A DNA stretch of 64,000 nucleotides, from contig JBKHIT010000002.1 in assembly GCA_046538485.1 (NCBI GenBank), positions 59,608 to 123,607 of the forward strand, given 5' to 3'. This document shows, piece by piece, positions 11,975 to 41,307 of the stretch; positions within the stretch are counted from its first letter, which is position 1, and each line of letters opens with the position of its first letter. The position numbers and the translations under genes were made by a program. This DNA comes from Candidatus Brocadiia bacterium (lineage in GTDB: Bacteria > Planctomycetota > Brocadiia > SM23-32). The notes below the pieces were generated by a model. The model was not told the origin of the DNA. It was given only the letters and a program-made list of their open reading frames with translations, and made no database searches.

Positions 11975-12071
11975 ACGTATAATCTCGACTCAGAGAAATT
12001 CAGTCAGAATGGACAGTCTCTCGGACTCAGATCCATATTTTTGATTGCTTTTCGAAGATAGGAGTCGATTT

Positions 12072-18530: not shown

Positions 18531-18786
18531 GGCGATCCCGCATCACCGAAAGCGGTGGGGAATTTACCGTGACGAGTCCCGTGTGGGAGAGAAGGTAACG
18601 GACTGCGGTTCTGAGTAAGCTCATACAGCTATCAAACACCTAAGCGAGCCAGAGCATACACTGCTCGCGGGTTGCACGCGCTTGACGCGTGGGCCGCAAC
18701 GGGTAAAAATAAGAACGGTTTAAAGGTGTTTGCCAGACGGTTTTTGAAATCGAAAATCAATATGGGGAACGGGGGAGAGAGGAGAA

Positions 18787-19806
18787 ATGATGGGTGACGA
18801 AGCGGATGTGCAATTGGTTGAAAAGGCCCATGCGGCCCGCGACAAAATCCTTGGCGAAGTACAAAAAGTCATTATAGGGCAGGAACGACTGATAGAGGAG
18901 GTTCTGATCTCTCTATTTGCCGGTGGGCATGTACTTATGGTGGGTGTGCCGGGATTGGCAAAAACGCTCCTGGTTCGGACGCTGGCGAAAACTCTTTCTG
19001 TCGAGTTCAAGCGTATCCAGTTTACTCCGGATATGATGCCTTCAGATATTACCGGCACTGAAGTTCTCGAGGAAGATCATGCGACAGGGGGAAAGCAATT
19101 TGTTTTCGTCCAGGGGCCGGTTTTTACAAATCTCCTGCTGGCTGATGAGATAAACCGCACCCCACCGAAAACGCAGGCGGCTCTTCTGGAAGCTATGCAG
19201 GAGAAGGATGTTACGGTTGGCAAGCAGACGTATGGTCTGGATGAACCTTTCATGGTAATGGCCACGCAGAATCCAATTGAGCAAGAAGGCACATACCCGC
19301 TTCCAGAAGCACAGCTTGATCGGTTTATGTTCATGGTTATGGTCGATTATCCGGCGCAGGACGAGTTGAAAGAAATCATCCGCGAGACGACAGTTGGTCA
19401 CCTGCCCGAACCGGATTCGGTTCTGACTGGTGAAGATGTCGCAAAATTGCGAGAGACAGTATGGACGATTCCGATCAGCGACCATGTGCTTGATTATATT
19501 GTCCGAATCGTTCAGGCCACTCACCCGGATGAGGAGAACGCTGCGGAGATGGTGAAGAAGTATCTTTCGTGGGGAGCCGGGCCCCGCGCGGGCCAGTACC
19601 TCAGTTTGGGAGCTAAATCGCGTGCGCTGCTTCGCGGGAACCTCCAGGCGACCGCGGAAGATGTCCGCGCGGTTATTCACCCCGTCATGCGGCATAGAAT
19701 GGTCACGAATTACACCGCTCTTGCCGATGGGGTGGATACGGATGATGTGATCGATGATTTGCTGAAAGTTGTGCCGGAAGCGCCCAAGGAGAAAGTTGGC
19801 GCCTGA
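18787..19806 (+). CDS. MoxR-family AAA+ ATPase
   Basis: Walker A appears in LMVGVPGLAKT, Walker B in LLADEINRTPPKTQAALLEAMQE, and the sensor region in VMATQNPIEQEGTYPLPEAQLDRF. A GAGGAG ribosome-binding site precedes the ATG. Confidence 0.9.
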   Translation: MMGDEADVQLVEKAHAARDKILGEVQKVIIGQERLIEEVLISLFAGGHVLMVGVPGLAKTLLVRTLAKTLSVEFKRIQFTPDMMPSDITGTEVLEEDHATGGKQFVFVQGPVFTNLLLADEINRTPPKTQAALLEAMQEKDVTVGKQTYGLDEPFMVMATQNPIEQEGTYPLPEAQLDRFMFMVMVDYPAQDELKEIIRETTVGHLPEPDSVLTGEDVAKLRETVWTIPISDHVLDYIVRIVQATHPDEENAAEMVKKYLSWGAGPRAGQYLSLGAKSRALLRGNLQATAEDVRAVIHPVMRHRMVTNYTALADGVDTDDVIDDLLKVVPEAPKEKVGA

Positions 19807-19857
19807 CGGTTCTTTCACGGGGTTCCTCCTTTTCATTGGTTCTGAGCTGAAAGAAAT

Positions 19858-20760
19858 ATGCCCACCAGTCAATTTCTTGATCCAGAGGTCTTGCGCTCAC
19901 TCGCCAATATCGAATTGAGAGCGCGAGTGCTCGTGGAGGGAATGTACGCATCCCGTCATAGAAGCCCGTATTACGGTTACAGCCAGGAATTTGTCGATCA
20001 CCGGGAATACGCCCCGGGCGACGAACCGAAGATGATCGATTGGAAGATGGTAGCGCGGACTGAAAAATATTTCGTCAAACGGTTCGAGATGGAATCAAAT
20101 ATGAACGTCGTGGCGCTGCTGGATGTCAGCGGTTCGATGGGATATGAATCCAGTAACGAAGCGCGTCTGAGCAAACTGGAATACGGTTCTTTCCTGGCAG
20201 CTTCCCTTGCTTTTTTGGTCAATAAACAACAGGACTCTCCCGGGTTGGTAACGTTTGACGAAAACATCCGTGATCTTGTCCCCCCAAAACAGGGGGATCG
20301 CAATCTTCATACTATTCTTTCGAAATTGCAGGATACCGAACCGGGTGGGAGAACGGATGTGGGCGATGTGCTCAAAGCGATAAGTCAGCGGCTAAAAAAT
20401 AACGGGATAGTTCTAATTATCAGCGACTGTTACGGGGACCCAGAAAATGTAGCGGAAGGCGTTCGGCATCTGTTGGTGCGCGGTCAGGATGTCATCATAT
20501 TCCACCTGATGGATCATGATGAGGTGACGTTCCCGTTCAAGTCTCTGACAAGTTTTCGAGATATGGAGACGGGGCAGGAAGTTATGAGCGACCCTCTCCG
20601 CCAGAAACAGCGGTATCTGAACAAATTCGAGGCTTTTCGGGAAGCGTTGCGCTCCAGCATCACTTCTGCTGGTGCCGACTATCGTTTCGTCGATACGGTT
20701 GATCCGCTGGAAACAGTATTGCGGGATTATCTCCTTTATCGTGAGCAGACCATGAGATGA
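19858..20760 (+). CDS. DUF58 domain protein (MoxR partner, VWA-like)
   Basis: The canonical DUF58 core is present: SQEFVDHREYAPGDEPKMIDWKMVARTEKYFVKRFE...VVALLDVSGSMGY. Confidence 0.85.
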   Translation: MPTSQFLDPEVLRSLANIELRARVLVEGMYASRHRSPYYGYSQEFVDHREYAPGDEPKMIDWKMVARTEKYFVKRFEMESNMNVVALLDVSGSMGYESSNEARLSKLEYGSFLAASLAFLVNKQQDSPGLVTFDENIRDLVPPKQGDRNLHTILSKLQDTEPGGRTDVGDVLKAISQRLKNNGIVLIISDCYGDPENVAEGVRHLLVRGQDVIIFHLMDHDEVTFPFKSLTSFRDMETGQEVMSDPLRQKQRYLNKFEAFREALRSSITSAGADYRFVDTVDPLETVLRDYLLYREQTMR

Positions 20761-20838
20761 AAAGGATTGTTCTAAAGAGCTTTTCTAGTTTATTTCGTAT
20801 CGTCAGAGACGGGAACGAAATGGTTTGATGGAGGCGCG

Positions 20839-23400
20839 ATGAGTTTTCTTTATCCACTTATGCTGGCCGGAATCGCTGGGATTGCGGTGCCGGTGATCCT
20901 GCATCTCATAGCGCGGCACCGATTTCCTGTCCAGGATTTTCCGTCCATCCGCCTGCTTCAGGCTGAAAAACGTGCGAACGTTTTTGCGTTTAAGCTGGTT
21001 GATAAAGCTCAGCTGTTGCTCAGGGCGCTTTTGCTTCTCCTGCTGGCCCTTGCGATGGCTCGGCCATTTTTGAATACGGCGAAAGACGAACCACCTCCGT
21101 TCAACCGCGTTGTCGTGCTCGATTGCTCTTCCAGTATGAAGATGACTGCAGAAAATGCGAGTGGGGGAGCAGCGCGACCGGCAAGCCTGATGGAAGTGGC
21201 AAAGAACAGGGGGACGGAATTGCTAAGCGAAGTCGAAGAGCCTGGCCATTCGGCCTGCGTTCTGGCCGGCCGTGTGCTGGAGCAGGATGGAAATACAAGA
21301 AGCAAGGTGGGCTCACTGTTACCGGGACATGCCGAATCTGTGCCGATCGTGCAAATGGCGGAGGCAATTGATGGCGAAGGTGAAGGACTCGTGTCGGCTT
21401 TAGGGAGAGCATGCGGATTGCTCCAGGGGCGGCACGAAATACGATCGCAAATTGTGGTTCTATCCGATATGCGTCGTTCGGCTTTTGCCGCTCGTAATCA
21501 AGCCAATATTGAGAAAATAAGACGGGTCGAAAAAGAACTGGGCGATCGGCTGGATGTTGTTTTCGTTGATGTCCGCGCGGAACCACAGTCGAATTTCGGA
21601 CTCCTGGATGGTTACGTCCGGGGCGGAGCGGGCCAGGTGGGCGAAGATGCCCATATCGTTGCGCGAATTGAACATTTCACTGATCGTATAGAAGAGCCTG
21701 AAGAAAGGGGAGATTCTAATGCTGAGAGCAAGAAACCGGGTTCAGGGAAGACGATACACGCTCGGCTGCGAATCGGACAGCAGAAAGAACCGTTTGTCCG
21801 CGAAATAGCTCTCCAACCGGGATCACAGGCCGTTGTAGATATGACGACACGGGTAAACAAAGCGGTCGAAACCTTCGCTCAGGTCTATCTGCAGGACCCC
21901 GACGGAGTTGCAAGCCCCGACGCTATGTCGGAAGACGACCGGTTTGCTGTTCCCCTGGAGGTTGCGGATGTGCTGCGGGTGTTAATTATCGATGGAACGG
22001 CTGCCGAAAAGGATACCAAAAGCGAAGTAGAAAAAGCAGATGGCGGTGTAATGACTGGTGGGCTTGGAGGGGATATGCACGGTGCCCCGCATTCTGAAGA
22101 AGAGAGCGATGGGGAATCGATCAGTGGAGTGCGAATTTTGCAGTATGTTCTCAACCCCGCTCGCGAACTGGGGCGAAGGGGGGGAACAGGTATAAATGCC
22201 AGCGTGGTGACGCTGGACGGTTTAGCGAACCAGCCGCTGAGTAAATACCAAATTATTTGTCTTTATGATGTCAGTAGTCTTTCGGCACAGGCCTTATCGG
22301 ACTTGGAGACATTTACAAAACAGGGTGGGGCGTTGCTTCTGATCGTAGCGGAAAATTGCAACCCGATGAAGTTTAATCGGACTTTGGCGTCGGCGGGGGC
22401 CGCTAATGCTGAAGCCGATGGGCGAGGGATGATTGCGCCGGCTCGGGTTGGGAACGAGAGAACTCTTAAATCTCCCGTAGGTGTTGCGCTAGGTTCGGAA
22501 AGTATGACCGAGCTCCATCCCGTGTTGGCGCCATTCCGGGATCAACGTCGGGGCGATCTTTCTGTGGTGAGATTTTCGAAGTTGCGGAAGTTGCGTGGGC
22601 TTGCGCGCGGCGCGGAAGTGATTGTTCAAAGCGAACCGCTGGGAGAAGGAAAACGGGGCATTCCATTAGTCGTGGAGCGAGACATCGGTGACGGCCGGGT
22701 GGTACTGCTGACATTCGGTTTCGAACTCGACCGCGGCAACGTTGCGCGGACGCGTGTTTTCCCCGTCCTTATGTGGCGGATTGTGGATTATCTCACAAAA
22801 AACCTCGAGCGGAAACCGCCTGATATTCTCACCGCTATGAGGCCTGCTGTACTGGATGTTTCCGAGCCGCGGTTTGCGTTCGTTGATGAAGTGGAGCTGG
22901 TCCCAGTTAAAGTTGCCAGAGAAAAATCGGCGGAAAAGAACGGCGAAAATGGGGATGTGAATCTGTCCGTGCAAAAAGAACGCGAAACGTCTTTAGCTGA
23001 ACCGCTGATCTTGCCGATTGCGGAGGATCGGACGGTGTTAGTGCCGGCTATCCCGACGGGTTTGTATCGATTACAAAAAGTCCGAACGAACGGCGGAACT
23101 TCGATGTTCAGCGCCCGTTCTCGTTACGTCACCGTCAATCCCGACCCCGCTGAGAGCGATCTGGATCTGGTTTCCGGAGAAGATCTTAACGAGATCGCGG
23201 GGGAAAGTTGGTCCCGCCTGCAGGTAGGTGAAACACTGAGTTTTGCTCCGGAAGGATGGGAAGCCTGGAAATGGCTGGTGCTGGCGCTGGTGGTTCTTTA
23301 TGCTGGCGAAGGATTTGTCGGGTGGTGGCTGAGTGCCCGAAGAGAAAAAGAACGAGCCGATGAATTACCGTCTTTTAACGGAGAAGGAACGGAAGCATGA
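20839..23400 (+). CDS. BatA-type N-terminal double-transmembrane (TIGR02226 / PF07584-like) VWA-domain membrane protein
   Basis: The N-terminus reads MSFLYPLMLAGIAGIAVPVILHLIARHR...LLLALAMARP, with two transmembrane helices and the LHL motif. A VWA MIDAS motif VVVLDCSSSM follows. The protein is 853 aa with a C-terminal transmembrane helix (WKWLVLALVVLYAGEGFVGWWL). Confidence 0.75.
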   Translation: MSFLYPLMLAGIAGIAVPVILHLIARHRFPVQDFPSIRLLQAEKRANVFAFKLVDKAQLLLRALLLLLLALAMARPFLNTAKDEPPPFNRVVVLDCSSSMKMTAENASGGAARPASLMEVAKNRGTELLSEVEEPGHSACVLAGRVLEQDGNTRSKVGSLLPGHAESVPIVQMAEAIDGEGEGLVSALGRACGLLQGRHEIRSQIVVLSDMRRSAFAARNQANIEKIRRVEKELGDRLDVVFVDVRAEPQSNFGLLDGYVRGGAGQVGEDAHIVARIEHFTDRIEEPEERGDSNAESKKPGSGKTIHARLRIGQQKEPFVREIALQPGSQAVVDMTTRVNKAVETFAQVYLQDPDGVASPDAMSEDDRFAVPLEVADVLRVLIIDGTAAEKDTKSEVEKADGGVMTGGLGGDMHGAPHSEEESDGESISGVRILQYVLNPARELGRRGGTGINASVVTLDGLANQPLSKYQIICLYDVSSLSAQALSDLETFTKQGGALLLIVAENCNPMKFNRTLASAGAANAEADGRGMIAPARVGNERTLKSPVGVALGSESMTELHPVLAPFRDQRRGDLSVVRFSKLRKLRGLARGAEVIVQSEPLGEGKRGIPLVVERDIGDGRVVLLTFGFELDRGNVARTRVFPVLMWRIVDYLTKNLERKPPDILTAMRPAVLDVSEPRFAFVDEVELVPVKVAREKSAEKNGENGDVNLSVQKERETSLAEPLILPIAEDRTVLVPAIPTGLYRLQKVRTNGGTSMFSARSRYVTVNPDPAESDLDLVSGEDLNEIAGESWSRLQVGETLSFAPEGWEAWKWLVLALVVLYAGEGFVGWWLSARREKERADELPSFNGEGTEA

Positions 23401-25664
23401 ACGTTATCTACTGGCTACTGGGACTTCGCGATCCCGGCTCAGTTTTAAAGATAACTGAATGGGCCTGGTATGCGGCCAGTTCGCCCGCTCTCTTGCTTCT
23501 TGTTGTAATAACCATTGTGGCACTGGCCGTTGCCGCCCTTAATTTGCTGCCCCAAAATGTCATGCCGTGGACTACCCGTTTCTCATTAACGTTAATGCGT
23601 ATCGCGGGATTTGCGCTACTTGTGCTGATGCTGGCGCAGGTTGAACTCGGACTCACCGTTCACCGTGAAGCGCGCCCCCGGGTGGCAATGTTGACAGATA
23701 TTTCGGGGAGTATGTCGATTAAGGATGGAGGCGGCGAAGAATCGCGTCTGTGGGCGGCCAATGCTTTCGCAAATGAAAAGGTCTCCAGGCTTGCCGAACA
23801 AGCGGATGTTGCCCGTTACTCTTTCAACTGGCAGGTAACTTCAGACGAAGAAAACCAGGGGGAGGGTAATGGCACAACACACCTTATCGAGGCCATCGAA
23901 GAAGTGGCGAGGCGGGAGAAAAGCGTCGATGCGCTCATTTTGCTGACCGACGGACACGATACGGTGGGAAATACTGGCCGACGTCTGTCGCGTCTCCTGG
24001 CGGCCCGCGGGCTTCCCGTCTATCCGGTAATTTTCGGGAAATCGGAAAAACCTCGGATTGCGCGCGTGAGAGTGACGGAGGGCGCGAATTATGTGAGGCT
24101 GGGCGACGAAACCCGTTTGGCTGCGAGGGTCACCTCGGAAGGTGTTCGTGGGCAGACGGTGGCCGTGCACCTGTTCGAGGAGGGCAAAGAAAAACCAGTA
24201 GCCAGCCGCGAGAACGTGCGAATTGGAAAGGGACCCGTTGAGGTCAATTTTGTTGTCCAGCCAACTGAACCGGGTCCACGAACGTATCGCATCGTTTTGA
24301 AGGGCGTCCGCGAATCGGTGAGTGAACGGACGCTTGTCGCAACACATCGCTTGAACGTGATCGACAAAAAGATCCGTGTGCTGTATGTCGACATCCCACG
24401 GGATGAACGCAAAATTTTGGGACACTGGCTCACTCTTGATCCCGTAGTTGATTTTGCTGCGCTGACATTGATGCCGAAAGGGGGATGGTATGGGCAGGGA
24501 GCCCTTCAACACGAAGACGTGGGAGCCGGACTTCCGAACAAAGAAGCGGATTTGTATAAATACGATGTGATCCTTTTCGGCGATATCCCGCGCAGTTATT
24601 TTCGGCATGGGGGCGACGTAGCGGAGACCAAAATGCGCCGTCTGGTGGAATTTGTGAGCCGCCGGGGAGGTGGCATTGTGACTCTTGGCGGGCGCGATGT
24701 ATACGCGGCTGGCGGTTACGAGGATTCTCCGCTTGCGCGTATTTTGCCATTCCGCATTGAACCCACCAAAGAGCCCCAGATCAAAGGCGAATTTTCGGCA
24801 CAACCCACAGCGATCGGTTTCAGCCACCCAATAATGCAACTTGAATGGCATCCCCGAGAAAACCGGGATGTTTGGTACGGTCTGGCCCGGCTGAACGGCT
24901 GTAATCGGGTCGGGGAGTTGAAACCAAGTGCCACTTTGCTTGCAGAACGAAAACTAGAGAATGAGACATTTCCGGTCATTGCCATTCACAATGTGGGGAA
25001 GGGGAAAGTTCTTGGAATGACCTGCGATACGACCTGGAGGTGGGAGATGATGCGCCCCCCCGACAGCGAAGATTATTTTCGAAAGTTCTGGGGTAACGTG
25101 GTCCGATATCTCGCCCCCGATCCTCGCCTTTCACCTCACCGACCACAGATAATGCGATACCAATCGCGGGCAGCGGTGGGAGAACGAGTTACCCTTGCAA
25201 CGCGCCTTGTCAATGATGTTTATGAGCCGGTGCGCAACGCGGATCTGCTTGTGAAAGTGCGCCACCCATCGGGAAGCTTAACAAAGATATATCCGCGGGA
25301 TGGGCGGGATAGCCCGGGACTCTACGAATATGAAATTGATGTCGATGAACCCGGCATCTGGACGGTGGAAACTGTTTACAATGACGCAACGACAACCGAG
25401 AAAATCAGGGCCGGGGAGAGTACGGAAGAGATGGAGGACCCGACAGCGAAACCAGACGCCATGAATCAGTTTGCCCGCACTACCGGGGGAAAAGCGTTTA
25501 CTCCACAGGAAAGTGAGGATTTGCTGAATGCCCTGGATCTTGAGAGGCGAGAGTACGTTCAGCGACCTGTTGTTGCGGTCTGGAACCTCCCCATTGTGCT
25601 GCTGGCACTTCTGGGATTAGTGTGTATGGATTGTTTCATCCGGAAGCGACGGGGGATGGTGTAA
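23397..25664 (+). CDS. Second VWA-domain membrane protein (BatB-like) with a GATase1 / DUF1355-like domain
   Basis: The N-terminus has transmembrane helices. A MIDAS motif VAMLTDISGSMS is present, and a central DVILFGDIPRSYF...GGGIVTLGG region resembles a class-I glutamine-amidotransferase-like domain. A C-terminal transmembrane segment IVLLALLGLVCM follows. The start overlaps the upstream stop (ATGA). Confidence 0.7.
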   Translation: MNVIYWLLGLRDPGSVLKITEWAWYAASSPALLLLVVITIVALAVAALNLLPQNVMPWTTRFSLTLMRIAGFALLVLMLAQVELGLTVHREARPRVAMLTDISGSMSIKDGGGEESRLWAANAFANEKVSRLAEQADVARYSFNWQVTSDEENQGEGNGTTHLIEAIEEVARREKSVDALILLTDGHDTVGNTGRRLSRLLAARGLPVYPVIFGKSEKPRIARVRVTEGANYVRLGDETRLAARVTSEGVRGQTVAVHLFEEGKEKPVASRENVRIGKGPVEVNFVVQPTEPGPRTYRIVLKGVRESVSERTLVATHRLNVIDKKIRVLYVDIPRDERKILGHWLTLDPVVDFAALTLMPKGGWYGQGALQHEDVGAGLPNKEADLYKYDVILFGDIPRSYFRHGGDVAETKMRRLVEFVSRRGGGIVTLGGRDVYAAGGYEDSPLARILPFRIEPTKEPQIKGEFSAQPTAIGFSHPIMQLEWHPRENRDVWYGLARLNGCNRVGELKPSATLLAERKLENETFPVIAIHNVGKGKVLGMTCDTTWRWEMMRPPDSEDYFRKFWGNVVRYLAPDPRLSPHRPQIMRYQSRAAVGERVTLATRLVNDVYEPVRNADLLVKVRHPSGSLTKIYPRDGRDSPGLYEYEIDVDEPGIWTVETVYNDATTTEKIRAGESTEEMEDPTAKPDAMNQFARTTGGKAFTPQESEDLLNALDLERREYVQRPVVAVWNLPIVLLALLGLVCMDCFIRKRRGMV

Positions 25665-27506: not shown

Positions 27507-28340
27507 ATGCGAGGTAAAAATAGCCATTACTCTGTCTTTCTTCGGTTGCTGACAATGTTGGCTGTAATCAGTCTCGTGACGGTGTCACGTAGCTTACGTG
27601 CCTCCTGGGCGGAACGTGCCGGGAAAATGAATAGAACGAAGCTTTCGGAACAAGAGGCACGGGCGAAGAGCGAGAAGGGCCAGCAGGAACGCAGAAACAA
27701 GCTGGCTATGCGTCGGATCAACCCCTCAATGGAAGGTGTTGACTGGAATGCTGACCCTACCGCAATCCCTTATATGCTCTACCAGGTGAACAAACGAACC
27801 GATCTGCCTGTTTACGTCGATAATGACGGCCTCAAGGTGGCTACTGATGAGCTGTTCGAGTTTACCATCGTTTATCTTACCTCTCACACCCGCTGGTCGT
27901 TCAATGAAAAGGAAACGGCCAATATGCAACGGTTTTTGCGTCGTGGTGGGACATTGTTGCTGGATGATTGTTATAACCGGGGAAGTGCATTTACCGATAG
28001 CGTTCGGCCGGAGGTGGCAAAGATGATCCCCGGTGCGGAACCGACAATGCTTTTGAAAGACGATTCCCGCGTGGAAGATGTATTCCGGATGGTGTATGAA
28101 ACACCGTGGCCGGGGGAAGCAGGTCGGTTTCCCAACAAACCTTGGCAGTATTTTCTGCTGGACGGGCGTCCGGCGGTATTTTTCAGCCCCAATGACGATG
28201 GTTGCGGCTGGGAAGTTTCAACTCCCCCGACGGCTTCAAACCCTATCGGTGAGGGAATCGGGCATGGAGGAGATAACCGACAACGAGAACTTATGTATCA
28301 GTGGGCAACAAACTGGATGCTTTATGCTTACACACACTGA
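27507..28340 (+). CDS. DUF4159-like protein (typical terminal gene of planctomycete MoxR operons)
   Basis: It has an N-terminal signal or anchor LLTMLAVISLVTV. FTIVYLTSHTRWSFNEKETANMQRFLRRGGTLLLDDCYN suggests a GATase1-like fold. It directly abuts the upstream gene (TAAATG). The family assignment is from memory of the architecture, not from a search. Confidence 0.5.
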   Translation: MRGKNSHYSVFLRLLTMLAVISLVTVSRSLRASWAERAGKMNRTKLSEQEARAKSEKGQQERRNKLAMRRINPSMEGVDWNADPTAIPYMLYQVNKRTDLPVYVDNDGLKVATDELFEFTIVYLTSHTRWSFNEKETANMQRFLRRGGTLLLDDCYNRGSAFTDSVRPEVAKMIPGAEPTMLLKDDSRVEDVFRMVYETPWPGEAGRFPNKPWQYFLLDGRPAVFFSPNDDGCGWEVSTPPTASNPIGEGIGHGGDNRQRELMYQWATNWMLYAYTH

Positions 28341-28366
28341 TAATTGCCTTTGGCGGACGAACAATA

Positions 28367-34300: not shown

Positions 34301-36394
34301 TCTGGTGGGGAGGCTCACCGAGGCAAGAAATGTTTGTCCCTTGAGCAAGGGGATCTTGTCAGCCAGGCTATCGAGCGAAAAGTGGTACCGTCGGCTACTT
34401 ACCTGCTGGAATTTTTCTACAAAATCAATAATTTAAAAGCGCGGCTGACGGCTGGCGTGATGCTTGAGGGCAAGGGCAAGATCAGCGATGAAGTCCTTAC
34501 TGCCTCGAAATTTGGGGCGGTGACGGGGGCGCGAGCCGGGCAGTGGAGCTTCGGGCGGCTCGCCGTGAAAAGCATGGCCGATACCGTGAAAATACGGGTC
34601 GGGTTTGAGGCGGAAGATGGAGTGGTTTTGGTCGATGATGTGAGTTTGAAACCGATTCGATTCCCGTCGGCCAATCTGGTGGCATGCGAAGAACTCCACG
34701 CGATTGAGCCCACGTATGTGGAAGATATTCGAGTCCAGTATGATCGCGTTTCAGGGGCACTCAAGAATAAGTTGCGCAATAAGAATCGGGTCGCTGCGTT
34801 TGCCCAATGTGATCCGAATGTGGCAATCATCTGGACGCAGGAAGAAAGCTATTTGCACAATGGTCGGCTGGACGACATCGGTCAGATATGGCGCTATCAA
34901 CCGGACAACGTGGGATTCAGCGTTATTTTTGCAGAACCTATGTACGTTTCCCATCTTGTGCTCTATCTGAACAATGCGACGCCTGGTAATGTTTATCAAA
35001 CCATCGGCGTGCTGGCGAACAATATAGAGACGAAAATGCCAGAAACGGTGGCACTTGTGCGAGGGAATCGTCGTCGGTTCGTAGTAGTTCATTTCGACGA
35101 ACCTGTCTACACCGATAATCTGAAAATATTGCCGGGACCGCACCGAGCTCATAAAGAGTGTATCACCGAAGTGGAAGTCTACGGTCCGCTCGGGGGCCCG
35201 GAAATGGCGGAGAAAAGCGATGGATTTTCGGAGGCAGCGCCGGCCCATTCGATGTTCATGGGATCGCCGGATCATGCTCCGAAACAACTTCCAGAACCCC
35301 TGACCGGCGAGTATAAAGAAGTAGCGAGATCGAGTCGCATTGGTACCCCGGCTTACCATTGTGGAGGCTCCGTTGCGAGCGGACTCTTTACGTTCGGTGT
35401 GGCAGATGGGAGGGTCCGCTCCGTGAAAATCAGTCGATCGGAGAGACGACATAACAGACCAGATTGGGGTCGGTCATGGTCTCTCAGCAGCGTGGCTCCA
35501 ACAACCGCACCCGCACGATATAGAGGACGCCTTCTGGTCGGATCGGCGGATTATAAACTGCATGCGGTCGCTGATAATGGCATGCATCTGTGGGGTTTTG
35601 AGACGGACGGGAGAGTGTACTCAGCTCCAACTCCGAACGGACATGAAGTATATTTTGGCTCGGATGATGGGAATCTGTACAAAGCGGATATCGATTCCGG
35701 GATGTTGATATGGCGGTTTGAAACCGGTGGAAAAGTGCGAAGCTCTCCTGCATTGTCCGACGGAAAACTTTATTTCGCTTCCTGGGATGGGAACCTTTAC
35801 GCTCTGGATGCGGCGAAAGGACGGAAGGTTTGGCAGGCTGCAATAGAGAAGTTCACACGTTGCAGTCCGGCGGTTCGAAGTGGAAAAGTTTACATTGGTG
35901 ATGAACGAGGTCATATGGTCTGCTACAGCGCTAAAAACGGCAAATTGTTGTGGAGAAAGCCGCTGGGAGACCATATTTCGAGGTGTCCGGTTGTGCTGGG
36001 AGATAGTGTGGTATATGCGAGCGAAGACGGCAAAATCGCGGCAATAATGCCGTCGGGATCCGTCCGTTGGAGGCGTGATCTGAAGACGCGTATCAGTGGC
36101 CAGCCCATTCCCACGCGGGAACAGCTTATCGTGCCCACTGACAATGGACTTTCTGTATTGAAATCGGACGATGGGAAGGACGATGAAAGGTTTGTCCCGC
36201 CTCGTAAGGCGGGTAAAATTCATACCGCCTTACCCTATAAAGGTTTCTTGTGTCTGCTGAGTGGTCGCCCATCCGTTTATAAGGCTGGCGGAAGGAACTT
36301 TGTGAATTATGGTGGCACTGTGGAGATCTGGGCTCCAAGAGAGGAACCTGAGACGTCGGAGACACCGGAAAAGGGCACGGGAGGTTCGAAATGA
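28367..36394 (+). CDS. Giant secreted multidomain protein (~2675 aa) with PQQ-like beta-propellers and CBM-like / discoidin-like (galactose-binding-like) modules
   Basis: The start MKTDKLFLRGRWAAILLCILCLALVGEVSA is a signal peptide with ATG at 28367. PQQ-type repeats occur near 32880-32960 (LVGTFGYGYNLFCLSEKGDLLWRKF) and 35500-36100 (GRLLVGSADYKLHAVADNGMHLWGFETDGRVYSAP... repeated about 6 times). A CBM-like module lies near 34200-34670 (FEAGTHWEIKDGK...VDDVSLKPI) and a discoidin-like module near 34880-35180. An acidic tract EKEEEEETIG...EEEPEEGQGEE lies near 33010-33120. One uninterrupted ORF. Confidence 0.7.
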   Translation: MKTDKLFLRGRWAAILLCILCLALVGEVSADETVELRLVPYDRPDVTVDELDEERPIVNPVSTAQGVEMRQVGVAVTCWARNVRLDGQSVFERYHGRKYVGRVPVVKKKLEPGKHTIWPGEHTFTVTDEGELQSGSPALEIEENVVRIKCYPVTIEAYQSSGPGLSGTMRQQALPEMTLREAEDAWSAAEDNKKKPRELLPVFEDFAPLRIWLPPNTAGAGYLLHPVGLTFQLDADGVKVGSGEKGRKVDGIKTAKNKIRVPLRVHPVRGDQGSALVVLGVHKMEWERESGLKEARWYPRHQPYEVQIAEEAPTIEIEGHLQTLPIKMMRVRIVDQLSGAQQLLVAEMESPHLITQQQFVSRIRGVDARGSKLDDKVVFGEVRRYGENEWNKLGLKGHGQGEAKFFVPELPTGLYELRIGFEVAENDRFGVKRWVTIGPEEPRPGVGTFTQKGRNAFYRGEEFWIGLGVRTPGEQIPSGQRIELKLEDENGRELSVYVGKTKAPIEERKTYVVRVGGEMSLKLAPGKYRLAAKLGSYSSPGRDISIVEPDPQTHFTTMLNGKYNVIGKQYEKVLKTCEGAEFLAREIKEAGYNTFMGMSYSLQRHNRKNTAIEQLVRERPSLGPWESYYQPSGRDRFMNAAVRNNLRFYENIFSHHDSMLPRHKAFLAAAERYASLELESMRHSPVFRGVCLYDEFYHSGGVHTAAIKDMFLKAQQMGFRERYDGLTVAEAKKALDRFVRRPPGRRRTEDVEKYRLWKEHEDWQWERFSRRMNGAIKDVMPSARTFALQRFGGSNGSNIAHNGPSEKVFGPLDIASCVMYKDGGFGDRPVFAPMQADVLSIRKNIPVWTQLHCFHGPGIYGRHLLRQAFFALSQKVEGFSFFTIGFDPENPRQLDNRDTIRTIAAELCRPYGDFFMACEKGYKKVGIYYSRTAAHLRQRKSLKLSYACEGLWVGCMRAGYPADFLYDTDIIEGRGMEYDVVFAPGWELVGECPPSIQKALKRLVNAGKIVATERSSKLPVKGISRLQSSLDEYDDKLGGAFPRYVDFETEMVWNRSEKTTQLVGDFLSKHIEPAGLVQKAEGTEELPVHVGPDWLKCGRGQYMIIPNFAYTRFDGLHKTLYQAPDRPTVKFPEKNPKCYDMLEMRSVEVERKDDWMIVRPDFRYYPGKIYAFLPREIGGVSLKASSEVKAGETIQYQARVTDDAGHTINAGFPIEIKLEHPLGRTLYDVYRVAKPVYSGAYAMPVNITPGNWTLSVRELIGGAIAKTKIKVGRGALPLGQYDGTTVFVHDVAQIRRFLKNNEKVIIARSESQQWLVPAARELSAGLKKMGIEAEIKNIDGIVRTAGDWNRKNPTADGTRMWRGTVVAPGLFVDAPVIVLGRRYENRLVEALIGRGTVPEPLTENFPGQGRAVVGHVRRAFSNEYDTLYIFSRDKTGIKRGIEKLISAEADVSAPVHPELVEPKVRSDAKLADQARRDWAPSSYRQNIWGEDLIRTIDVDPVSGRILVGTFGYGYNLFCLSEKGDLLWRKFLPEHDVYYARWYDQGIREIEKEEEEETIGAWENAKEIRPDEGYEEEPEEGQGEEVKKGARRVVAATGRGFHVFLLNGENGDVIKKFASTEWPNYHSTYTEGALKTEVPIRVNTPLKQILVCGKTAMVALDYEGNKIWSLDRADAITEYPEKAEQTGAATFPRSAVMRGFAISPDGSKIIHSQYRITGSTETAKEIVDVWGHLPHVIDARTGKILAVNRSNRGESTRACGWSVGWPENSKRPWVYRKGLGAPLQEDGSFGEFKLVRGKRLENGDWLQHTNTRLARVAANGNVVWEKDSEEVWIRQLDRLSKDQTKIYRCDPDGLIKCYDLENGETLWEYGGLDYSAVFRPTQKSLLAGAEDGDLVFLDSAGKAKWETTIRDDNRVPAGGYPGEIEYAEQRDPDSTAEFYPVGEDKPGDYKTLLRKGLEQISGGGFEAGTHWEIKDGKIESGGEAHRGKKCLSLEQGDLVSQAIERKVVPSATYLLEFFYKINNLKARLTAGVMLEGKGKISDEVLTASKFGAVTGARAGQWSFGRLAVKSMADTVKIRVGFEAEDGVVLVDDVSLKPIRFPSANLVACEELHAIEPTYVEDIRVQYDRVSGALKNKLRNKNRVAAFAQCDPNVAIIWTQEESYLHNGRLDDIGQIWRYQPDNVGFSVIFAEPMYVSHLVLYLNNATPGNVYQTIGVLANNIETKMPETVALVRGNRRRFVVVHFDEPVYTDNLKILPGPHRAHKECITEVEVYGPLGGPEMAEKSDGFSEAAPAHSMFMGSPDHAPKQLPEPLTGEYKEVARSSRIGTPAYHCGGSVASGLFTFGVADGRVRSVKISRSERRHNRPDWGRSWSLSSVAPTTAPARYRGRLLVGSADYKLHAVADNGMHLWGFETDGRVYSAPTPNGHEVYFGSDDGNLYKADIDSGMLIWRFETGGKVRSSPALSDGKLYFASWDGNLYALDAAKGRKVWQAAIEKFTRCSPAVRSGKVYIGDERGHMVCYSAKNGKLLWRKPLGDHISRCPVVLGDSVVYASEDGKIAAIMPSGSVRWRRDLKTRISGQPIPTREQLIVPTDNGLSVLKSDDGKDDERFVPPRKAGKIHTALPYKGFLCLLSGRPSVYKAGGRNFVNYGGTVEIWAPREEPETSETPEKGTGGSK

Positions 36395-39300
36395 AAAGAG
36401 TTTTAGGCACCACAATAACGCTGTGGATCGCGGCATTGGTGTTTTTGTCGTTGAACTGTGCCGTCGCGGCCCAGCCCCATAATATCGTTGAAAACTTCAC
36501 CGCGAGGCTCAATTCAAGCGACCAAATACACTCTTCGGTTGTGACCACGGATCCCTGGCGCGGGGTTGGCCATGCGCATTTGACCTACAAGGCCGAAGGG
36601 CGCCATCGAAGGGCCAGCTTGTTTTTACCGGATGAAAAATACCGAGTTCCAGGACCGGGAACCGTAAAAATGTGGGTTAAGGGAGATGGGTCAGGTAATA
36701 ATCTGCGAATCTGCGTGCGACATGCCAGAGTTCAACATGATCGGCATGGACGTCGTCGCCTGCAACACCATGAAGACATCTGGTCCAGGCAGGTCAAGCT
36801 CGATTTCGCAGGATGGAAACGCCTGAGTTTCGATATGAGCGAAATTCCCGATGACCGGTCGGCATGGTGGCGGTGCCTTGAGATCACAGTTCCGCGTGGG
36901 CAAGAAGCGAAAATGAGCGGTAAACTTGCTCTTGATGAATTTGTTCAGATTCCCAAAAAGTCGAGGCCAAAGGGGGCTGTGGCTGTAACACTGATCGGGC
37001 CGCGGATACGCAATTTCAGCCGCAAAATCGCTGTCTCACTGGATGTCAGGAATTTCACCCGGAAAAGCCAGGAAATCAAAGCTCGAGTGGTGGCCACTGA
37101 CCGAAATGAGAATCTGGTTCTGGATCGGGACTTTACTATCAAGGCCGAACCGTTCGCGAGAATAAGCGCCGATGAAAACAAGACTTCTGAACACCATCTT
37201 GAACTTGTGCCCGATCAAATCGCACGGTTTCTTCCACCTTTCAAAGTCCAGTGCGATGTCGGTTCCGAACTAACCGATCTTTCGGTCAGCCGTAGTTTCA
37301 AAGTGGTGATGGGCAATAGTATTTATCTGTTTGATGACCTTTCAGATGTTTACGGGCGCTGGTTTACCGCGGGCGGCGGGGATTTGAAAAGTATGCGGCA
37401 TTGGCCGAAATGGATAATGGGAGAGCAGCAGAGATATTCCCCGTTCTACCAGACGTCGGCCAGGCTGACACGTGTGCCGGTCGAGCACAAACCAACCGGC
37501 AAATTACTTGCCGAACGATACCTCGGAAAGTATGCCATGAAATTCGACTATCGGGGCAACGCGGCGGTTTATATGACCCGCCGGCGTTATCTGCCCGGGA
37601 ATGCCTACCGGATGGGGGTCTGGGTAAAAGGCGACGGCAACGGTGCTGAATTGTGGGCTCGTTTTCTCGATTACACAGACAATGCAGATTTTTGGCCCGG
37701 TGGGTGGCAACGAATTGGGCGCGGTGGGCGAGTGGTCTGTAAACTCGATTTTACCGATTGGAGATATTTCGAGTTAGAGTTGCCAGGTGGAGGTATCGGA
37801 CGCAACACGCCGCGTGGTTCAACGGATGCGCTGGATTTTCCCCTTGAACTGACCGCTTTCCGCATCGAACCGGGGAAAGAAAAGAGTTCCGGGTCCGTTC
37901 AAATTGGAGCCATTCACGTTCATACCCAGCAACCACAACGAAAAACTCTGGCCGTGCAAGTAGGGTATGAAGATGCGGAAAGACGTTGGTGGTCGGAAGG
38001 CGATGCATGGGCTGCAGTGCAAAACAGCTGGCCGGGAGGCGGGCGGAAGGTAAGAGTGACCTGGAACCTGCTGGACCGAAAAAATGAAGAAATTGCATCG
38101 GGACAAAAAGAGCTCGGACTTAATCCAGTAGCGACGGCAAATGTTGAGATACCTCTGTCAAAGTTCGCGGCGAAAATTGAGAAATGTCTCGCCCCTTTCC
38201 GCCTTCAAGTCGTTGCAACGGATACGGAAGACTTTTCTACTTCCACGACACGTGAATTGATTATCGCAAAACCGGATTCCTCGGCTTTAGTTGCCGATTT
38301 TGAGGCGGAACGGGGATACCTGGGAATGCTGCCGAGGGGCATGGAACGCAAGAAACCGGCCGGGGAATTCGTGGCCTGGACGAGCGCCAAAGTTTCGCAT
38401 GGGGGGCAAAGATCGCTGGCCATCAATTGGAAGAAAGAGGCCGGACTCCAGTTGCCTGTATCGGTCGATCCACCTTTGCCGGGCGTGCCCGTTGAGCTGA
38501 GTTTGTGGGTCCATGGGGATGGTAAAGGTGAGATAATGTATCCGTTGATCGGGGACAAACGCGGGGTCAGTCATGGCGCGCACGGTGGGCAATGGGATCT
38601 GTTTTTGCCACGCACAAGCGCGGGTAAATTTCAAAACGTGGTTAAGGTTGATTGGAAAGGATGGAAGAAGTTGACTTTCAATCTGCCGGTTATTCCCCCG
38701 ACATGGCAGGAAAAACTGCCGGTGCTGGGTTTTGAGGCCAGTTATCCGCTCGGTGTACATCTGATGGTGGACGGACGAGATGCATCGGCAGAAATGGGCA
38801 CGATATATGTCGATGATTTGCGTGCTGAAACACATCTCGCTCCTCAGCATCGAGTCAATATGCGGTTAAGGCCGATGGGGAGGACGAATGTCCTTCGTCC
38901 CGGCGAAGCGGCGCGCGTTTTGGTGACGAATCACGGGATGGCAGACGAGAGTAATGTAGAGATTGAAGGGGGTATTTATGATTGGCGGGGGCGAAAGCGG
39001 GTGGAAGTTGATGAAAAACGGGCTCTTAAACCGATGGCACATGTAGGGCTCGAATGCGGCGAAAAACTGCCGGTTGGTGCATACAAGATTGCACTGGATC
39101 TAAAACAAAATGCGAAGAAGTTGGAGCACCTCAGCAAGGATTTTCTGGTGGGGGATCTGTCAAAATATCTCGGTAGCGGTTGGGAAGAACAGATCGACGA
39201 TTCGCCGGCTTTGAAGCGGCCCCTGGGTGAAGATTTTGCCCGGATTGATGAAGACTGGGACTGGGTGGAACATTATCCCGGAAACGTGCAGCTGGATACG

Positions 39301-41277
39301 CTGAGATATCACATAGGGAGGGTCAGGGAAGACGGCGCGAAACCGTGGGCTTTGCTTGGATACAGCGCTTATTATGCCGCTGGAGTGGGTTTTGAGCAAA
39401 TGATGAGGGGAGCTTTTCAACGAAGAAAAAGGGATGCCGGGCACGCCGTGGATGTCTTCCTGGTTCCTGAACGAATGGATGATTGGGATCATTACACCTG
39501 CGAGGTCATGCGTGGGGTTGGCCAGGGCCTGGCCGGCTGGATCTTGTGGAACAATCCGGATGGGTCGGGCCCCCTGGCGGTGGAACCCAAAAAGTTTGCC
39601 TCCATGGCGAAAATAGCCGACCAATGGCGCCGACGTTACTGTCCGGAGAAACCTCTGTTGATCGGGGGAATGAGCTCCAATACGGCTATCCCATATCTGC
39701 GGAAGTTAGGCAAACAAAATGCTTTGGAACATGTCAGCGGAGTGAATGTTCGTATGGACGTCGGACGGCTTTCCCCGGAAGACGCTGAGATTGTCAATTA
39801 TATTGAGGAGCTTCGCTCAGAAATGCCTCAGGCTGAAGAACATCGTTACGTTCTTGTGACGGATCTCGACTGGGCCGTTGAGAAAGAAGGGAGCGGGCTC
39901 TGCGTGTTTGACCAGGCCGCGTTTTTGACGCGCTCATACATGATGTTAAACCGTTTCGGAATTCGGCCTGTTTTGCAAATTGCGAACGAAGATTATGATC
40001 GACTCGGGCTGGGTCTGGCGTATCGGGATCGCCTTTATGTACCGCCGATGCGGGCCCGACCGAGTGATTATCATTTTAAACCTTCCTGGTGGGCGATGGC
40101 CCGGGTGCGAGAACTGTTTGGCAATTTCCATTCGACGGGAAGCGTTGAAATCAGCGATATTATTCCCGGGCAAACCCGGTGCTTGCTTTTCGAAAAAAGC
40201 GGAGAGGATGTGACTGTCGTCGTATTATGGCGTTTGTATCGGCCGGGAGAAATCTCTTTTGAAAATACAGGTCTCGAAGTGACTGAATCATGGGACCTGT
40301 TTGGAACTCCCATTAAGCCGACTGAGAAATGGTTCTCCGTGGGGAAAATGCCCACTGCGTTCCGTATCCCCGTGAAACCGACTGTTGCGGAGCAAGCATT
40401 GAGACTTCTGCAGGTGAAAAGTCCAGATGGGCTGAGCTGGCCCCAGACGGTTATATCGGTAATAAAACCGGGAGGAAAAGATTATAAACAGACCGGCGGC
40501 CAAAAAGCGGTTTTCAAGGGCAAAACGGTGACTGCACGCAGCTGGGAAGGTAATGGTTTGCGGTTCAAAAAAGGTGGTTCGGAGGAATTTTCAGTGCCAG
40601 TGCCGAAAGATTACGGACTGGTTCTCAGGAAACGCTTCCTGCTGGAAGAGATCGGGCAAGACGCGGAGGTGGCGGTCAATGGGAAAAAAGTAGCGGAGTG
40701 GAATCTGCGGCGGCACAAAAAACAGTTGTCCGGTGGCGTGCGAGATAGCTCTTTTTTCATTGGAAGGAAGCATTTAAAAAATTCAGACGAGGCAAAAATA
40801 ACGGTCAAATACCCGGACGCAGCCAATACGATCGAGTGGCGGATTTTTGCGTATCGAGAAGGCGCCTTCCCACTCTCAGCTCTCGGCCCTCTGTATGCGG
40901 AACAGAATGTTGGGCACATAAGGTTTGGACGCAACAGTCTCGGGATGCCACTGAAAATTGCTGGCAAATCATTTAAAAACGGACTGGGGACATTTGCCCG
41001 TAGTCTGGTGGAATATCAAATCAACGGGCAATTTAAGAAGCTGAAGGCAGAAGTCGGTGTGGATGCCGTCACAGAAGGGAAAGGATCCGTTGTGTTCAAA
41101 GTGTTTGGTGACGGGGAAGAACTGTGGTCTTCACCTGTAATGTCGGGGTTGGATGAAGCCCGACCGGTGGAGATAGATGTGAGCAGTGTAGATCGGTTGC
41201 GTCTGGTGGTTGATAACGCTGGCGATGGCAACCGCTATGATGCTGCAAATTGGGGCAGAGCCCGCCTGCTGCGCTAA
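36391..41277 (+). CDS. Giant secreted protein (1628 aa) with three internal beta-sandwich repeats and a C-terminal NPCBM (NEW2-like) carbohydrate-binding domain
   Basis: The start overlaps the upstream stop (ATGA) and carries a signal peptide MKRVLGTTITLWIAALVFLSLNCAVAA. Three paralogous segments (WVKGDGSGNNLRI, WVKGDGNGAELWA, WVHGDGKGEIMY) are each followed by a W..L.F motif. The C-terminus GKSFKNGLGTFARSLVEYQINGQFKKLKAEVGVDAVTEGKGSVVFKVFGDGEELWSSPVMSG...LVVDNAGDGNRYDAANWGRARLL matches the NPCBM domain pattern. Confidence 0.7.
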   Translation: MKRVLGTTITLWIAALVFLSLNCAVAAQPHNIVENFTARLNSSDQIHSSVVTTDPWRGVGHAHLTYKAEGRHRRASLFLPDEKYRVPGPGTVKMWVKGDGSGNNLRICVRHARVQHDRHGRRRLQHHEDIWSRQVKLDFAGWKRLSFDMSEIPDDRSAWWRCLEITVPRGQEAKMSGKLALDEFVQIPKKSRPKGAVAVTLIGPRIRNFSRKIAVSLDVRNFTRKSQEIKARVVATDRNENLVLDRDFTIKAEPFARISADENKTSEHHLELVPDQIARFLPPFKVQCDVGSELTDLSVSRSFKVVMGNSIYLFDDLSDVYGRWFTAGGGDLKSMRHWPKWIMGEQQRYSPFYQTSARLTRVPVEHKPTGKLLAERYLGKYAMKFDYRGNAAVYMTRRRYLPGNAYRMGVWVKGDGNGAELWARFLDYTDNADFWPGGWQRIGRGGRVVCKLDFTDWRYFELELPGGGIGRNTPRGSTDALDFPLELTAFRIEPGKEKSSGSVQIGAIHVHTQQPQRKTLAVQVGYEDAERRWWSEGDAWAAVQNSWPGGGRKVRVTWNLLDRKNEEIASGQKELGLNPVATANVEIPLSKFAAKIEKCLAPFRLQVVATDTEDFSTSTTRELIIAKPDSSALVADFEAERGYLGMLPRGMERKKPAGEFVAWTSAKVSHGGQRSLAINWKKEAGLQLPVSVDPPLPGVPVELSLWVHGDGKGEIMYPLIGDKRGVSHGAHGGQWDLFLPRTSAGKFQNVVKVDWKGWKKLTFNLPVIPPTWQEKLPVLGFEASYPLGVHLMVDGRDASAEMGTIYVDDLRAETHLAPQHRVNMRLRPMGRTNVLRPGEAARVLVTNHGMADESNVEIEGGIYDWRGRKRVEVDEKRALKPMAHVGLECGEKLPVGAYKIALDLKQNAKKLEHLSKDFLVGDLSKYLGSGWEEQIDDSPALKRPLGEDFARIDEDWDWVEHYPGNVQLDTLRYHIGRVREDGAKPWALLGYSAYYAAGVGFEQMMRGAFQRRKRDAGHAVDVFLVPERMDDWDHYTCEVMRGVGQGLAGWILWNNPDGSGPLAVEPKKFASMAKIADQWRRRYCPEKPLLIGGMSSNTAIPYLRKLGKQNALEHVSGVNVRMDVGRLSPEDAEIVNYIEELRSEMPQAEEHRYVLVTDLDWAVEKEGSGLCVFDQAAFLTRSYMMLNRFGIRPVLQIANEDYDRLGLGLAYRDRLYVPPMRARPSDYHFKPSWWAMARVRELFGNFHSTGSVEISDIIPGQTRCLLFEKSGEDVTVVVLWRLYRPGEISFENTGLEVTESWDLFGTPIKPTEKWFSVGKMPTAFRIPVKPTVAEQALRLLQVKSPDGLSWPQTVISVIKPGGKDYKQTGGQKAVFKGKTVTARSWEGNGLRFKKGGSEEFSVPVPKDYGLVLRKRFLLEEIGQDAEVAVNGKKVAEWNLRRHKKQLSGGVRDSSFFIGRKHLKNSDEAKITVKYPDAANTIEWRIFAYREGAFPLSALGPLYAEQNVGHIRFGRNSLGMPLKIAGKSFKNGLGTFARSLVEYQINGQFKKLKAEVGVDAVTEGKGSVVFKVFGDGEELWSSPVMSGLDEARPVEIDVSSVDRLRLVVDNAGDGNRYDAANWGRARLLR

Positions 41278-41307
41278 CCCGCATATGGGTCGGAGAATTT
41301 CAGAGAG

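Follow-up and report, generated by a model that had tools for sequence, protein, structure and literature searches.

A gene cassette conserved across Planctomycetota, Verrucomicrobiota and their relatives joins a Bat/Cmd-type MoxR-VWA module to a DUF4159 protein and two giant exported proteins

We analysed a window of 64,000 nucleotides (nt) from a metagenome-assembled genome (MAG) of a Candidatus Brocadiia bacterium (contig JBKHIT010000002.1), in which a 22.5-kb stretch (positions 18787-41277) carries eight co-oriented open reading frames (ORFs) on the + strand: genes for a MoxR-type AAA+ ATPase, a DUF58 protein, three membrane proteins and a small exported DUF4159 protein, followed by genes for two giant exported proteins, giant 1 (G1) and giant 2 (G2). 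These eight genes are one conserved operon-like cassette of bacteria of the Planctomycetes-Verrucomicrobia-Chlamydiae (PVC) superphylum, in which a MoxR-VWA module of the Bat/Cmd type is combined with a DUF4159 protein, its putative adaptor, and with two giant exported proteins as dedicated partners. The initial annotation of this DNA had raised the idea that the giants are dedicated clients or partners of the module; that they are partners and not chance neighbours is supported by the recurrence of the gene order, its survival of rearrangement and paralogy, and the co-divergence of the proteins. Six of the eight proteins are predicted to place large domains outside the cytoplasmic membrane, ~6,000 residues in sum, with MoxR and the DUF58 protein inside.

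The linkage was assessed in a scan of one genome per GTDB species by DUF4159 alignment, which returned 63 loci, all in PVC-type MAGs; the loci were compared with the eight window proteins by tblastn, and counts refer to the 48 close loci, those with a DUF4159 protein at least 50% identical to that of the window. Where enough sequence was available, giant 1 lay directly downstream of DUF4159 in 39 of 40 close loci and giant 2 was present in 29 of 30; a DUF4175-like gene lay upstream of DUF4159 in 36 of 39. The initial annotation had asked whether the giants regularly follow the DUF4159 operon in PVC genomes; in close loci with differing flanks they do. MAGs of Planctomycetota, Verrucomicrobiota, Lentisphaeria and related groups show the eight-gene order again, with proteins that are 40-55% identical. 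Contigs of six diverse giant 1 homologues (L001-L006) were compared, and L001, L002 and L006 have the identical order MoxR-DUF58-BatA-GATase1_like-(DUF4175-like)-DUF4159-G1-G2. In L004 the DUF58 and MoxR genes are swapped, an extra 204-aa gene follows MoxR and a PDDEXK gene is inserted before DUF4159; in L005 a giant 1 homologue of 30% identity lies at the contig end, still preceded by a DUF4159 gene (57% identity). The module is not upstream of the giant 1 homologue in L003, a Kiritimatiellia MAG. The genes flanking the block are unrelated between L001, L002, L004 and L006.

Rearranged and paralogous clusters keep the linkage as well. Type II clusters, with DUF4159 about 40% identical, have the order G1like-G2like-DUF4159, and type III clusters (about 33%) the order MoxR-DUF58-...-DUF4159-G2like-G1like; single genomes may hold types I and III, or I and II. 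Giant 2 has moved between the DUF4175-like gene and DUF4159 in loci L037 and L038, together with a CBM9+HEAT protein. One groundwater MAG (JACPCR01) has two DUF4159 genes, of which that in L057 adjoins a G2-like gene and that in L062 a G1-like gene, and loci L019 and L021 have two tandem DUF4159 genes and then giant 1; such split and tandem arrangements hint at one DUF4159 per giant. The identity of DUF4159 to its window counterpart parallels that of giant 1 (Pearson 0.93 over 52 loci) and of giant 2 (Spearman 0.79). The survival of the linkage in rearranged and paralogous loci and this parallel divergence argue, at the level of sequence comparison, that the giants and DUF4159 are inherited and have diversified as a unit, and that the most persistent link is the one between DUF4159 and a giant, not that between MoxR and a giant, the MoxR/VWA module being usually, not always, attached.

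Two side observations were made among these loci. Behind a divergent G1like-G2like pair (28% identity), locus L070 has at 11738-13264 a gene for a 508-aa Lactamase_B + ThuA protein; ThuA, like DUF4159, belongs to the GATase1-like fold group of the Pfam clans. Loci L011, L013, L015, L019 and L047 are titled 'uncultured Klebsiella sp.', 'Akkermansia sp.', 'Akkermansia muciniphila' or 'Rhodospirillaceae' despite a PVC-type cassette; mislabelling of the bins is a more probable explanation than horizontal transfer.

The gene layout and junctions of the initial annotation were reproduced from the sequence. Genes 3 and 4 overlap in an ATGA (23397-23400), genes 4/5 and 5/6 abut as TAAATG (25662-25667 and 27504-27509), and wider gaps inside the module separate genes 1 and 2 (51 nt) and genes 2 and 3 (78 nt). 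The spacer between the DUF4159 stop and the giant 1 ATG is 26 nt long (28341-28366), and a simple sequence scan found no terminator-like or promoter-like site in it; the corresponding gaps in relatives are 11, 19, 20, 22 and 101 nt. Giants 1 and 2 overlap in a second ATGA (36391-36394), and 4-nt overlaps by coordinates occur also in L001, L002, L004 and L006. The cassette probably has its promoter region in the 256 intergenic nt (18531-18786) that separate the start of MoxR from a divergent gene remnant. Two weak sigma-70-like matches upstream of MoxR (18682-18710 and 18730-18757) are consensus matches only, and such matches are fewer in this region than in shuffled sequence.

Gene 1 (18787-19806) encodes a cytoplasmic MoxR-type AAA+ ATPase of 339 aa, placed in the MoxR AAA_3 group by Pfam AAA_3 (216.8 bits against a cut-off of 27, 1e-64) and AAA_lid_2 (53.2 bits); its translation has classical, intact Walker A (GVPGLAKT) and Walker B (LLADEINR) motifs, and it is 67-78% identical among syntenic loci. 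The gene 51 nt downstream of MoxR (gene 2, 19858-20760, 300 aa) is of the VWA cofactor type, with DUF58 (152.7 bits, 1e-44) and VWA_2 (1.2e-11) matches and the motif LLDVSGSM, which has the DxSxS form of a metal ion-dependent adhesion site (MIDAS); no hydrophobic or transmembrane (TM) segment was found in it. Gene 3 (20839-23400, 853 aa) is a BatA-type membrane protein with an N-terminal double-TM hairpin, a VWA domain with the MIDAS motif VLDCSSSM, and a C-terminal TM (TM segments at aa 7-25, 59-77 and 813-831); it matches Pfam BatA (1.5e-12) and TIGR02226 (5.3e-16), and its homologues bear a VWA_2 match. With gene 6 below, Pfam and NCBIfam matches in genes 1-3 confirm the MoxR, DUF58, BatA and DUF4159 assignments made at first sight of the sequence. 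The second VWA assignment, to gene 4 (23397-25664, 755 aa), stands in part: this second double-TM membrane protein with a C-terminal TM (aa 32-50, 62-80 and 725-743) has the DxSxS MIDAS motif LTDISGSM, yet Pfam calls no VWA domain and finds GATase1_like instead (1.4e-6, 28.5 bits against a cut-off of 27). Gene 5 (25665-27506, 613 aa) encodes a DUF4175-like membrane protein with three TM helices (aa 43-61, 66-84 and 170-188) and a C-terminal domain of ~420 aa; the Pfam DUF4175 match is weak (4.2e-8), as is that to TIGR02302, far below its cut-off. By the positive-inside rule, the large domains of the gene 3-5 products are probably periplasmic, a placement that fits the description of TIGR02226 and agrees with the topology described for BB0173 (PMC5700661).

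The product of gene 6 (27507-28340, 277 aa) is an exported DUF4159 protein (Pfam DUF4159, 106.8 bits, 1.4e-30) with an N-terminal hydrophobic signal-like segment at aa 9-27, and is 100% identical to a Candidatus Brocadiia MAG protein. H127, D153, D154, C155, C233, E236, H253 and the C-terminal H277 are invariant over the three paralogous cluster types; judging by the alignment, they might make up a site for metal binding or catalysis, or a disulfide bond. The DUF4159 subfamily of the cassette is small, 14 representative clusters at E<=1e-30 versus 713 at E<=1e-3 in an exhaustive phmmer search, and most DUF4159 relatives are proteins of 500-900 aa. In the open-access literature searched, DUF4159 was mentioned only in a Pfam database paper. 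Five proteins of other bacteria (P0380, P0410, P0414, P0436 and P0442) have DUF4159 near the C-terminus of chains of 1.9-2.4 kaa, laid out as signal peptide, VWA (MIDAS), Ig-like repeats, TM, a very long low-complexity linker, DUF4159 and a beta-rich C-terminal domain. As candidates for fusion (Rosetta-stone) evidence of contact between DUF4159 and the giants they were rejected, as hmmsearch and hhalign gave no significant similarity between them and modules of G1 or G2.

Gene 7 (28367-36394) encodes giant 1, 2675 aa long when read from the ATG (the mechanical ORF begins at a GTG, 28301). Both giants begin with N-terminal hydrophobic signal-like segments of the Sec type, in keeping with the signal peptides first assigned to them. 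In giant 1 the signal peptide is followed by a beta-rich N-terminal region; a core of GH42-like TIM barrel, GATase1-like domain and beta-sandwich; an alpha/beta domain; propeller 1; two beta-rich regions; and propeller 2. Its 55 full-length homologues (30-55% identity) all come from Planctomycetota, Verrucomicrobiota, Kiritimatiellia-type MAGs or metagenomes, and the family is conserved over its entire length (mean column identity 47%). In an AlphaFold2 model built from the family alignment (aa 440-1490; pLDDT 90.1, pTM 0.92), the core (30029-32206, about aa 555-1280) is predicted by fold match to have the three-domain GH42 fold; Pfam Glyco_hydro_42 and 42M gave no match at E<=0.01, and by sequence the core is not a GH42 member. 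Catalytic positions in both giants were counted in the family-alignment columns where clan GH-A enzymes bear catalytic residues, located by the strand order of the models. At the beta4 end of the giant 1 barrel, D694 is kept in 26 of 27 sequences and E695 in all 27; at the beta7 end, where the sequence is VWTQLH, none of the 27 has a Glu (register taken from the model by DSSP, not from superposition). A D694-E695 pair without a nucleophile recalls the substrate-assisted HexNAc hydrolases, and on this speculation giant 1 may use unusual chemistry.

The at least two PQQ-type propellers that had been read in giant 1 are both there, matched by PQQ_2 at two sites and resembling BamB, not a quinoprotein dehydrogenase. 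Propeller 1 (32834-34216, about aa 1490-1950) matches PQQ_2 at aa 1814-1912 (28.8 bits against a cut-off of 27.6, 1.2e-6); propeller 2 (35504-36226, about aa 2380-2620) matches PQQ_2 (7.4e-36) and Beta-prop_ACSF4, and its phmmer matches in the Protein Data Bank (PDB) are designed propellers and BamB. Giant 1 was considered as a PQQ-dependent dehydrogenase and rejected (TIGR03075, 38.7 bits against a cut-off of 480; Pfam PQQ, 22.9 against 26.7). The acidic, Glu-rich tract that had been remarked on is real and lies within propeller 1 (32999-33130, aa 1545-1588), but it is no feature of the family; most of 26 aligned homologues lack this insertion, which is specific to the window protein. The giant 1 homologue of L003 (10001-17841) is called as a protein of 2151 aa, although similarity to giant 1 runs 1.4 kb further; the short call is probably due to a frameshift or long-read assembly error.

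Gene 8 (36391-41277) encodes giant 2, of 1628 aa, with a signal peptide, three jelly-roll-like modules, a GH39/PslG-like barrel plus beta-sandwich, and a CBM51/NPCBM module. It has about 110 full-length homologues and is likewise conserved over its entire length (mean column identity 50%); the two families amount to ~55 (giant 1) and ~110 (giant 2) sequence clusters in a database of 5.8 billion proteins. The three N-terminal modules, read from the sequence and from their common WV[KH]GDG motif, are separated by spacer regions; the first has a weak CBM_11 match (E 0.009), some homologues bear a precomputed CBM_11 match, and aa 381-453 match FlaA-like proteins weakly. An AlphaFold2 model from the family alignment (aa 820-1628; pLDDT 89.8, pTM 0.89) predicts a GH39-type fold of (beta/alpha)8 barrel (39223-40290, about aa 945-1300) and beta-sandwich; a profile of the barrel alone gave no match among PDB sequences. 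At the inferred beta4 end the N-E-P motif of GH39 is replaced by W-[D/N]-[N/G/S/T/D]-P-D, all 26 sequences lacking a Glu there, and the beta7 end, its register also inferred, has D in 20, E in five and N in one of the 26. The C-terminal module (40873-41268, aa 1495-1626) has the CBM51 fold and matches Pfam NPCBM with 131.7 bits. Of the carbohydrate-binding modules that the initial annotation had seen in both giants, this one is confirmed, the CBM_11 match in giant 2 is weak, and the discoidin- or CBM-like modules of giant 1 found no Pfam match.

Taken together, each barrel appears, on the modelled strand register, to lack one canonical catalytic Glu family-wide, which suggests that neither is a canonical retaining hydrolase and that both may be glycan-binding pseudo-enzymes or may use unusual chemistry; the missing Glu makes glycan-binding scaffolds or unusual enzymes more likely than ordinary hydrolases. 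The role in polysaccharide processing at first suggested for the giants is for the same reason doubtful. The GH-like folds are visible only through structure prediction: no Pfam GH family was significant in either giant, and sequence searches of the PDB with the full giants and family profiles returned propeller and CBM51 only. Profile and BLAST comparisons gave no significant similarity between G1 and G2, or between G1 and a GH42-like protein encoded elsewhere in the window (43136-46732). A complex glycan is the probable ligand, to judge by the GH-like barrels and by the CBM51 and CBM11/FlaA-like modules.

Among known systems, the cassette resembles the cmd-type module of alphaproteobacteria, with which it shares four families, co-oriented here: AAA_3, DUF58, BatA_N/TIGR02226 with GATase1-like/DUF4159, and DUF4175/TIGR02302 (weak here). 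Unlike a cmd-type operon of four genes with BatA_N and DUF4159 in one polypeptide, the cassette has six module genes, DUF4159 as a separate 277-aa exported protein, and two giants attached. Mutants of the Rhizobium leguminosarum cmd operon (cmdA-cmdD, RL3499-RL3502) have envelope and cell-morphology defects (PMC5700661; PMC5118466). The BatI (Bacteroides aerotolerance) operon of Bacteroides fragilis and its spirochaete homologues in Borrelia (bb0170-bb0176) and Leptospira, as described in PMC5700661, share tight packing, MoxR, DUF58 and a BatA-type protein with double TM, VWA and C-terminal TM, and the cassette, too, has MoxR, DUF58 and BatA-type (BatA_N + VWA + TM) genes in one operon. Unlike Bat operons, it adds GATase1_like, DUF4175-like and DUF4159 proteins and two giant exported proteins, and Pfam found no TPR, SH3 or BatD match among its eight proteins; the only TPR protein nearby is encoded convergently at 41842-42864. 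In PMC5700661 Bat-like operons are assigned no function. More broadly, MoxR-VWA pairs act as chaperone and co-chaperone on specific complexes (PMC7159879; PMC3893208), and the cassette shares the AAA+ MoxR gene beside a MIDAS-bearing VWA cofactor with the systems described there: RavA-ViaA, CbbQ-CbbO, NorQ-NorD, CoxD-CoxE and midasin. Such a pair is generally taken to remodel one particular complex at the expense of ATP. In RavA-ViaA and its kin, however, client and ATPase share a compartment, whereas the candidate partners of the cassette are exported and its VWA ectodomains are predicted to be periplasmic.

The giants likewise have distant relatives. The giant 2 barrel is 16-17% identical to PslG (GH39, of the Pseudomonas aeruginosa Psl system) and BcGH39 (5jvk), but the NEP acid/base motif of these is replaced in 26 of 26 giant 2 family members and the barrel sits within a 1628-aa protein with N-terminal modules and CBM51. 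Giant 1 shares the predicted three-domain layout of the GH42 beta-galactosidases and alpha-L-arabinopyranosidases (and of GH164) at 10-13% identity; unlike them, it appears on the modelled register to lack the beta7 nucleophile Glu in 27 of 27 sequences. The core is also exported, within a polypeptide of 2675 aa, whereas GH42 enzymes occur as soluble trimers, usually in the cytoplasm. Our search of the open-access literature turned up no account of giant PQQ-propeller/NPCBM proteins linked to a MoxR/DUF4159 module.

Around the cassette, the window holds several genes for polysaccharide degradation: a heparinase II/III-like gene (15472-17646, - strand), the gene for the GH42-like protein mentioned above (1198 aa, + strand) and a sulfatase gene (46741-48285, - strand). 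The 1136-aa ORF at 12045-15455 had no Pfam match. The divergent gene remnant at the upstream border (17886-18530, - strand) is a 214-aa ORF, directly preceded by in-frame stops, that corresponds only to the pair of Ig domains (Mannosidase_ig, Ig_mannosidase) at the C-terminus of a GH2 beta-mannosidase; it ends where the cassette begins and may be the scar of an insertion or rearrangement. The N-terminal half of the mannosidase was not found in 41278-41841, the 564 nt after giant 2, which hold no credible ORF. In L001, L002 and L006 a ninth gene follows giant 2 and encodes a CBM9_1-like protein of about 310 aa, and accessory genes for a HEAT-repeat protein and a protein of roughly 190 aa occur in L027, L035, L043 and L047; the window has no copy of the CBM9-like, the HEAT-repeat or the roughly 190-aa gene. 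Further downstream (53737-56157, - strand), a stand-alone VWA protein (VWA_4/VWA_2, 381 aa) is encoded beside a double zinc-ribbon protein (341 aa).

The reading we favour, and hold to be probable if only just, is that the cassette encodes one envelope machine, in which the membrane VWA proteins and DUF4159 dock or assemble the giants on the periplasmic side and MoxR and DUF58 act from the cytoplasm. DUF4159 would bind the giants after export, possibly one DUF4159 per giant, and the MIDAS sites of the membrane VWA proteins (genes 3 and 4) would capture the giants and keep them on the outer side of the cytoplasmic membrane, so that DUF4159, VWA proteins and giants build a very large glycan-binding envelope complex. 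MoxR and DUF58 would drive assembly, release or remodelling through short cytoplasmic loops or tails of the membrane proteins, and the complex would bind a polysaccharide, either from the environment or from the envelope of the cell itself, perhaps modifying it non-canonically. Because the giants have Sec-type signal peptides and MoxR is cytoplasmic, a direct contact between MoxR and a giant could occur only before export or by way of the membrane proteins. A bolder form of this proposal, a PVC-specific envelope machine in which an inner-membrane VWA/MIDAS platform, powered by the cytoplasmic MoxR, assembles and operates a periplasmic or surface complex of >0.5 MDa, made of two pseudo-glycosidase/lectin giants and the DUF4159 adaptor, that captures whole polysaccharide chains, seems to us unlikely.

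Several points weigh against the envelope machine. MoxR and DUF58 are cytoplasmic and the giants exported, and no Bat-like system is known to have a mechanism of cross-membrane coupling. A Kiritimatiellia genome is the one clear exception to the linkage, its DUF4159 (L041) and giant 1 (L003) lying 745 kb apart on the same contig, and loci L019, L021, L057, L062 and L041 show no MoxR or VWA genes in their available sequence; since such loci have giants or DUF4159 all the same, the ATPase may be dispensable or encoded elsewhere. The peptide patterns of the scan came from giant-linked DUF4159 proteins, and the frequency of giant-free DUF4159 operons lies outside its scope. The loss of catalytic residues is read from the strand register of predicted models and not from superposition, which makes it less firm, and D694-E695 of giant 1 is compatible with substrate-assisted hydrolysis.

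The same cytoplasmic pair could instead work before export, which is the client idea of the initial annotation taken strictly: MoxR and DUF58, which have neither TM segments nor signal peptides, would hold or unfold the giant precursors and pass them to the translocon, with the membrane proteins docking and DUF4159 acting later in the periplasm. At 2675 and 1628 aa the giants are exceptionally long Sec substrates, the giants of cluster type I and those of type III are each accompanied by a separate MoxR/DUF58 pair, and MoxR1 of Mycobacterium tuberculosis reportedly assists the export of RipA. In L019, L021, L057 and L062, however, DUF4159 and a giant are present although the available sequence shows no MoxR; Bat/Cmd modules are widespread without giant neighbours; and, with most DUF4159 relatives at 500-900 aa, giant-specific export cannot be the general purpose of the module. 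We give this pre-export role rather little credence. That the giants are ordinary secreted carbohydrate-active enzymes for feeding, sharing only transcription with a housekeeping module of envelope maintenance, is possible though doubtful. It would account for the GH42-like and GH39-like folds, the CBM51 and a window rich in polysaccharide-degradation genes (heparinase-like, GH42-like and sulfatase genes, the mannosidase remnant); it sits badly with the apparent family-wide absence of a canonical catalytic Glu from one position per modelled barrel, the lack of any significant Pfam GH family, and the full-length conservation of both giants at 40-55% identity, always paired. Nor would accidental co-transcription maintain a linkage to DUF4159 that outlasts rearrangement and differing flanks.

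It is highly improbable that the cassette is a conflict (defence) system centred on MoxR and vWA, as defined by Kaur et al. 2020, in which a propeller-bearing giant would be the third component. Gene 1 does cross-match Pfam bpMoxR (51 bits), giant 1 has beta-propellers, and NPCBM is known from conflict systems (PMC8195603). AAA_3 fits gene 1 far better, however (216.8 bits), and its P-loop is GVPGLAKT, not the GxxxTAKS given for these systems in PMC7159879; the three VWA-bearing proteins have no propeller match, against the C-terminal propeller of ~four blades in the definition set out there, and include BatA-type membrane proteins. There is also no effector, effector-associated domain (EAD) or variable N-terminal domain; the giants are exported, giant 1 is conserved over its full length and has no TPR, and PADLOC gave no matches except a marginal one on MoxR. 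Still less credible is an adjacency due to phylogenetic inertia or chance with no functional link: the carriers do all belong to one superphylum and are mostly MAGs of uncertain quality, but the flanks are unrelated in every locus examined, identities are only 30-55%, and the linkage also holds in rearranged and paralogous versions.

Bat/Cmd-type MoxR-VWA operons are widespread and have been tied to aerotolerance, virulence and envelope integrity since 1999, and the accounts in PMC5700661 and PMC3557215 name no client or mechanism. The cassette gives such operons specific candidate partners, two linked exported giants and a small adaptor-like DUF4159 protein. It also defines two rare families of giant proteins, each with an apparently degenerate GH42-like or GH39-like barrel, that are relevant to the evolution of carbohydrate-active enzymes and to how Planctomycetes and Verrucomicrobia that degrade polysaccharides work as cells. 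For both of these groups, 'selfish' uptake of intact polysaccharides has been reported, and the envelope machine in its bolder form, if real, would be a candidate apparatus for such uptake or for remodelling the glycans of the cell's own envelope. It would then also show a general role of Bat/Cmd-type MoxR proteins, the ATP-dependent handling of exported client proteins across the membrane.

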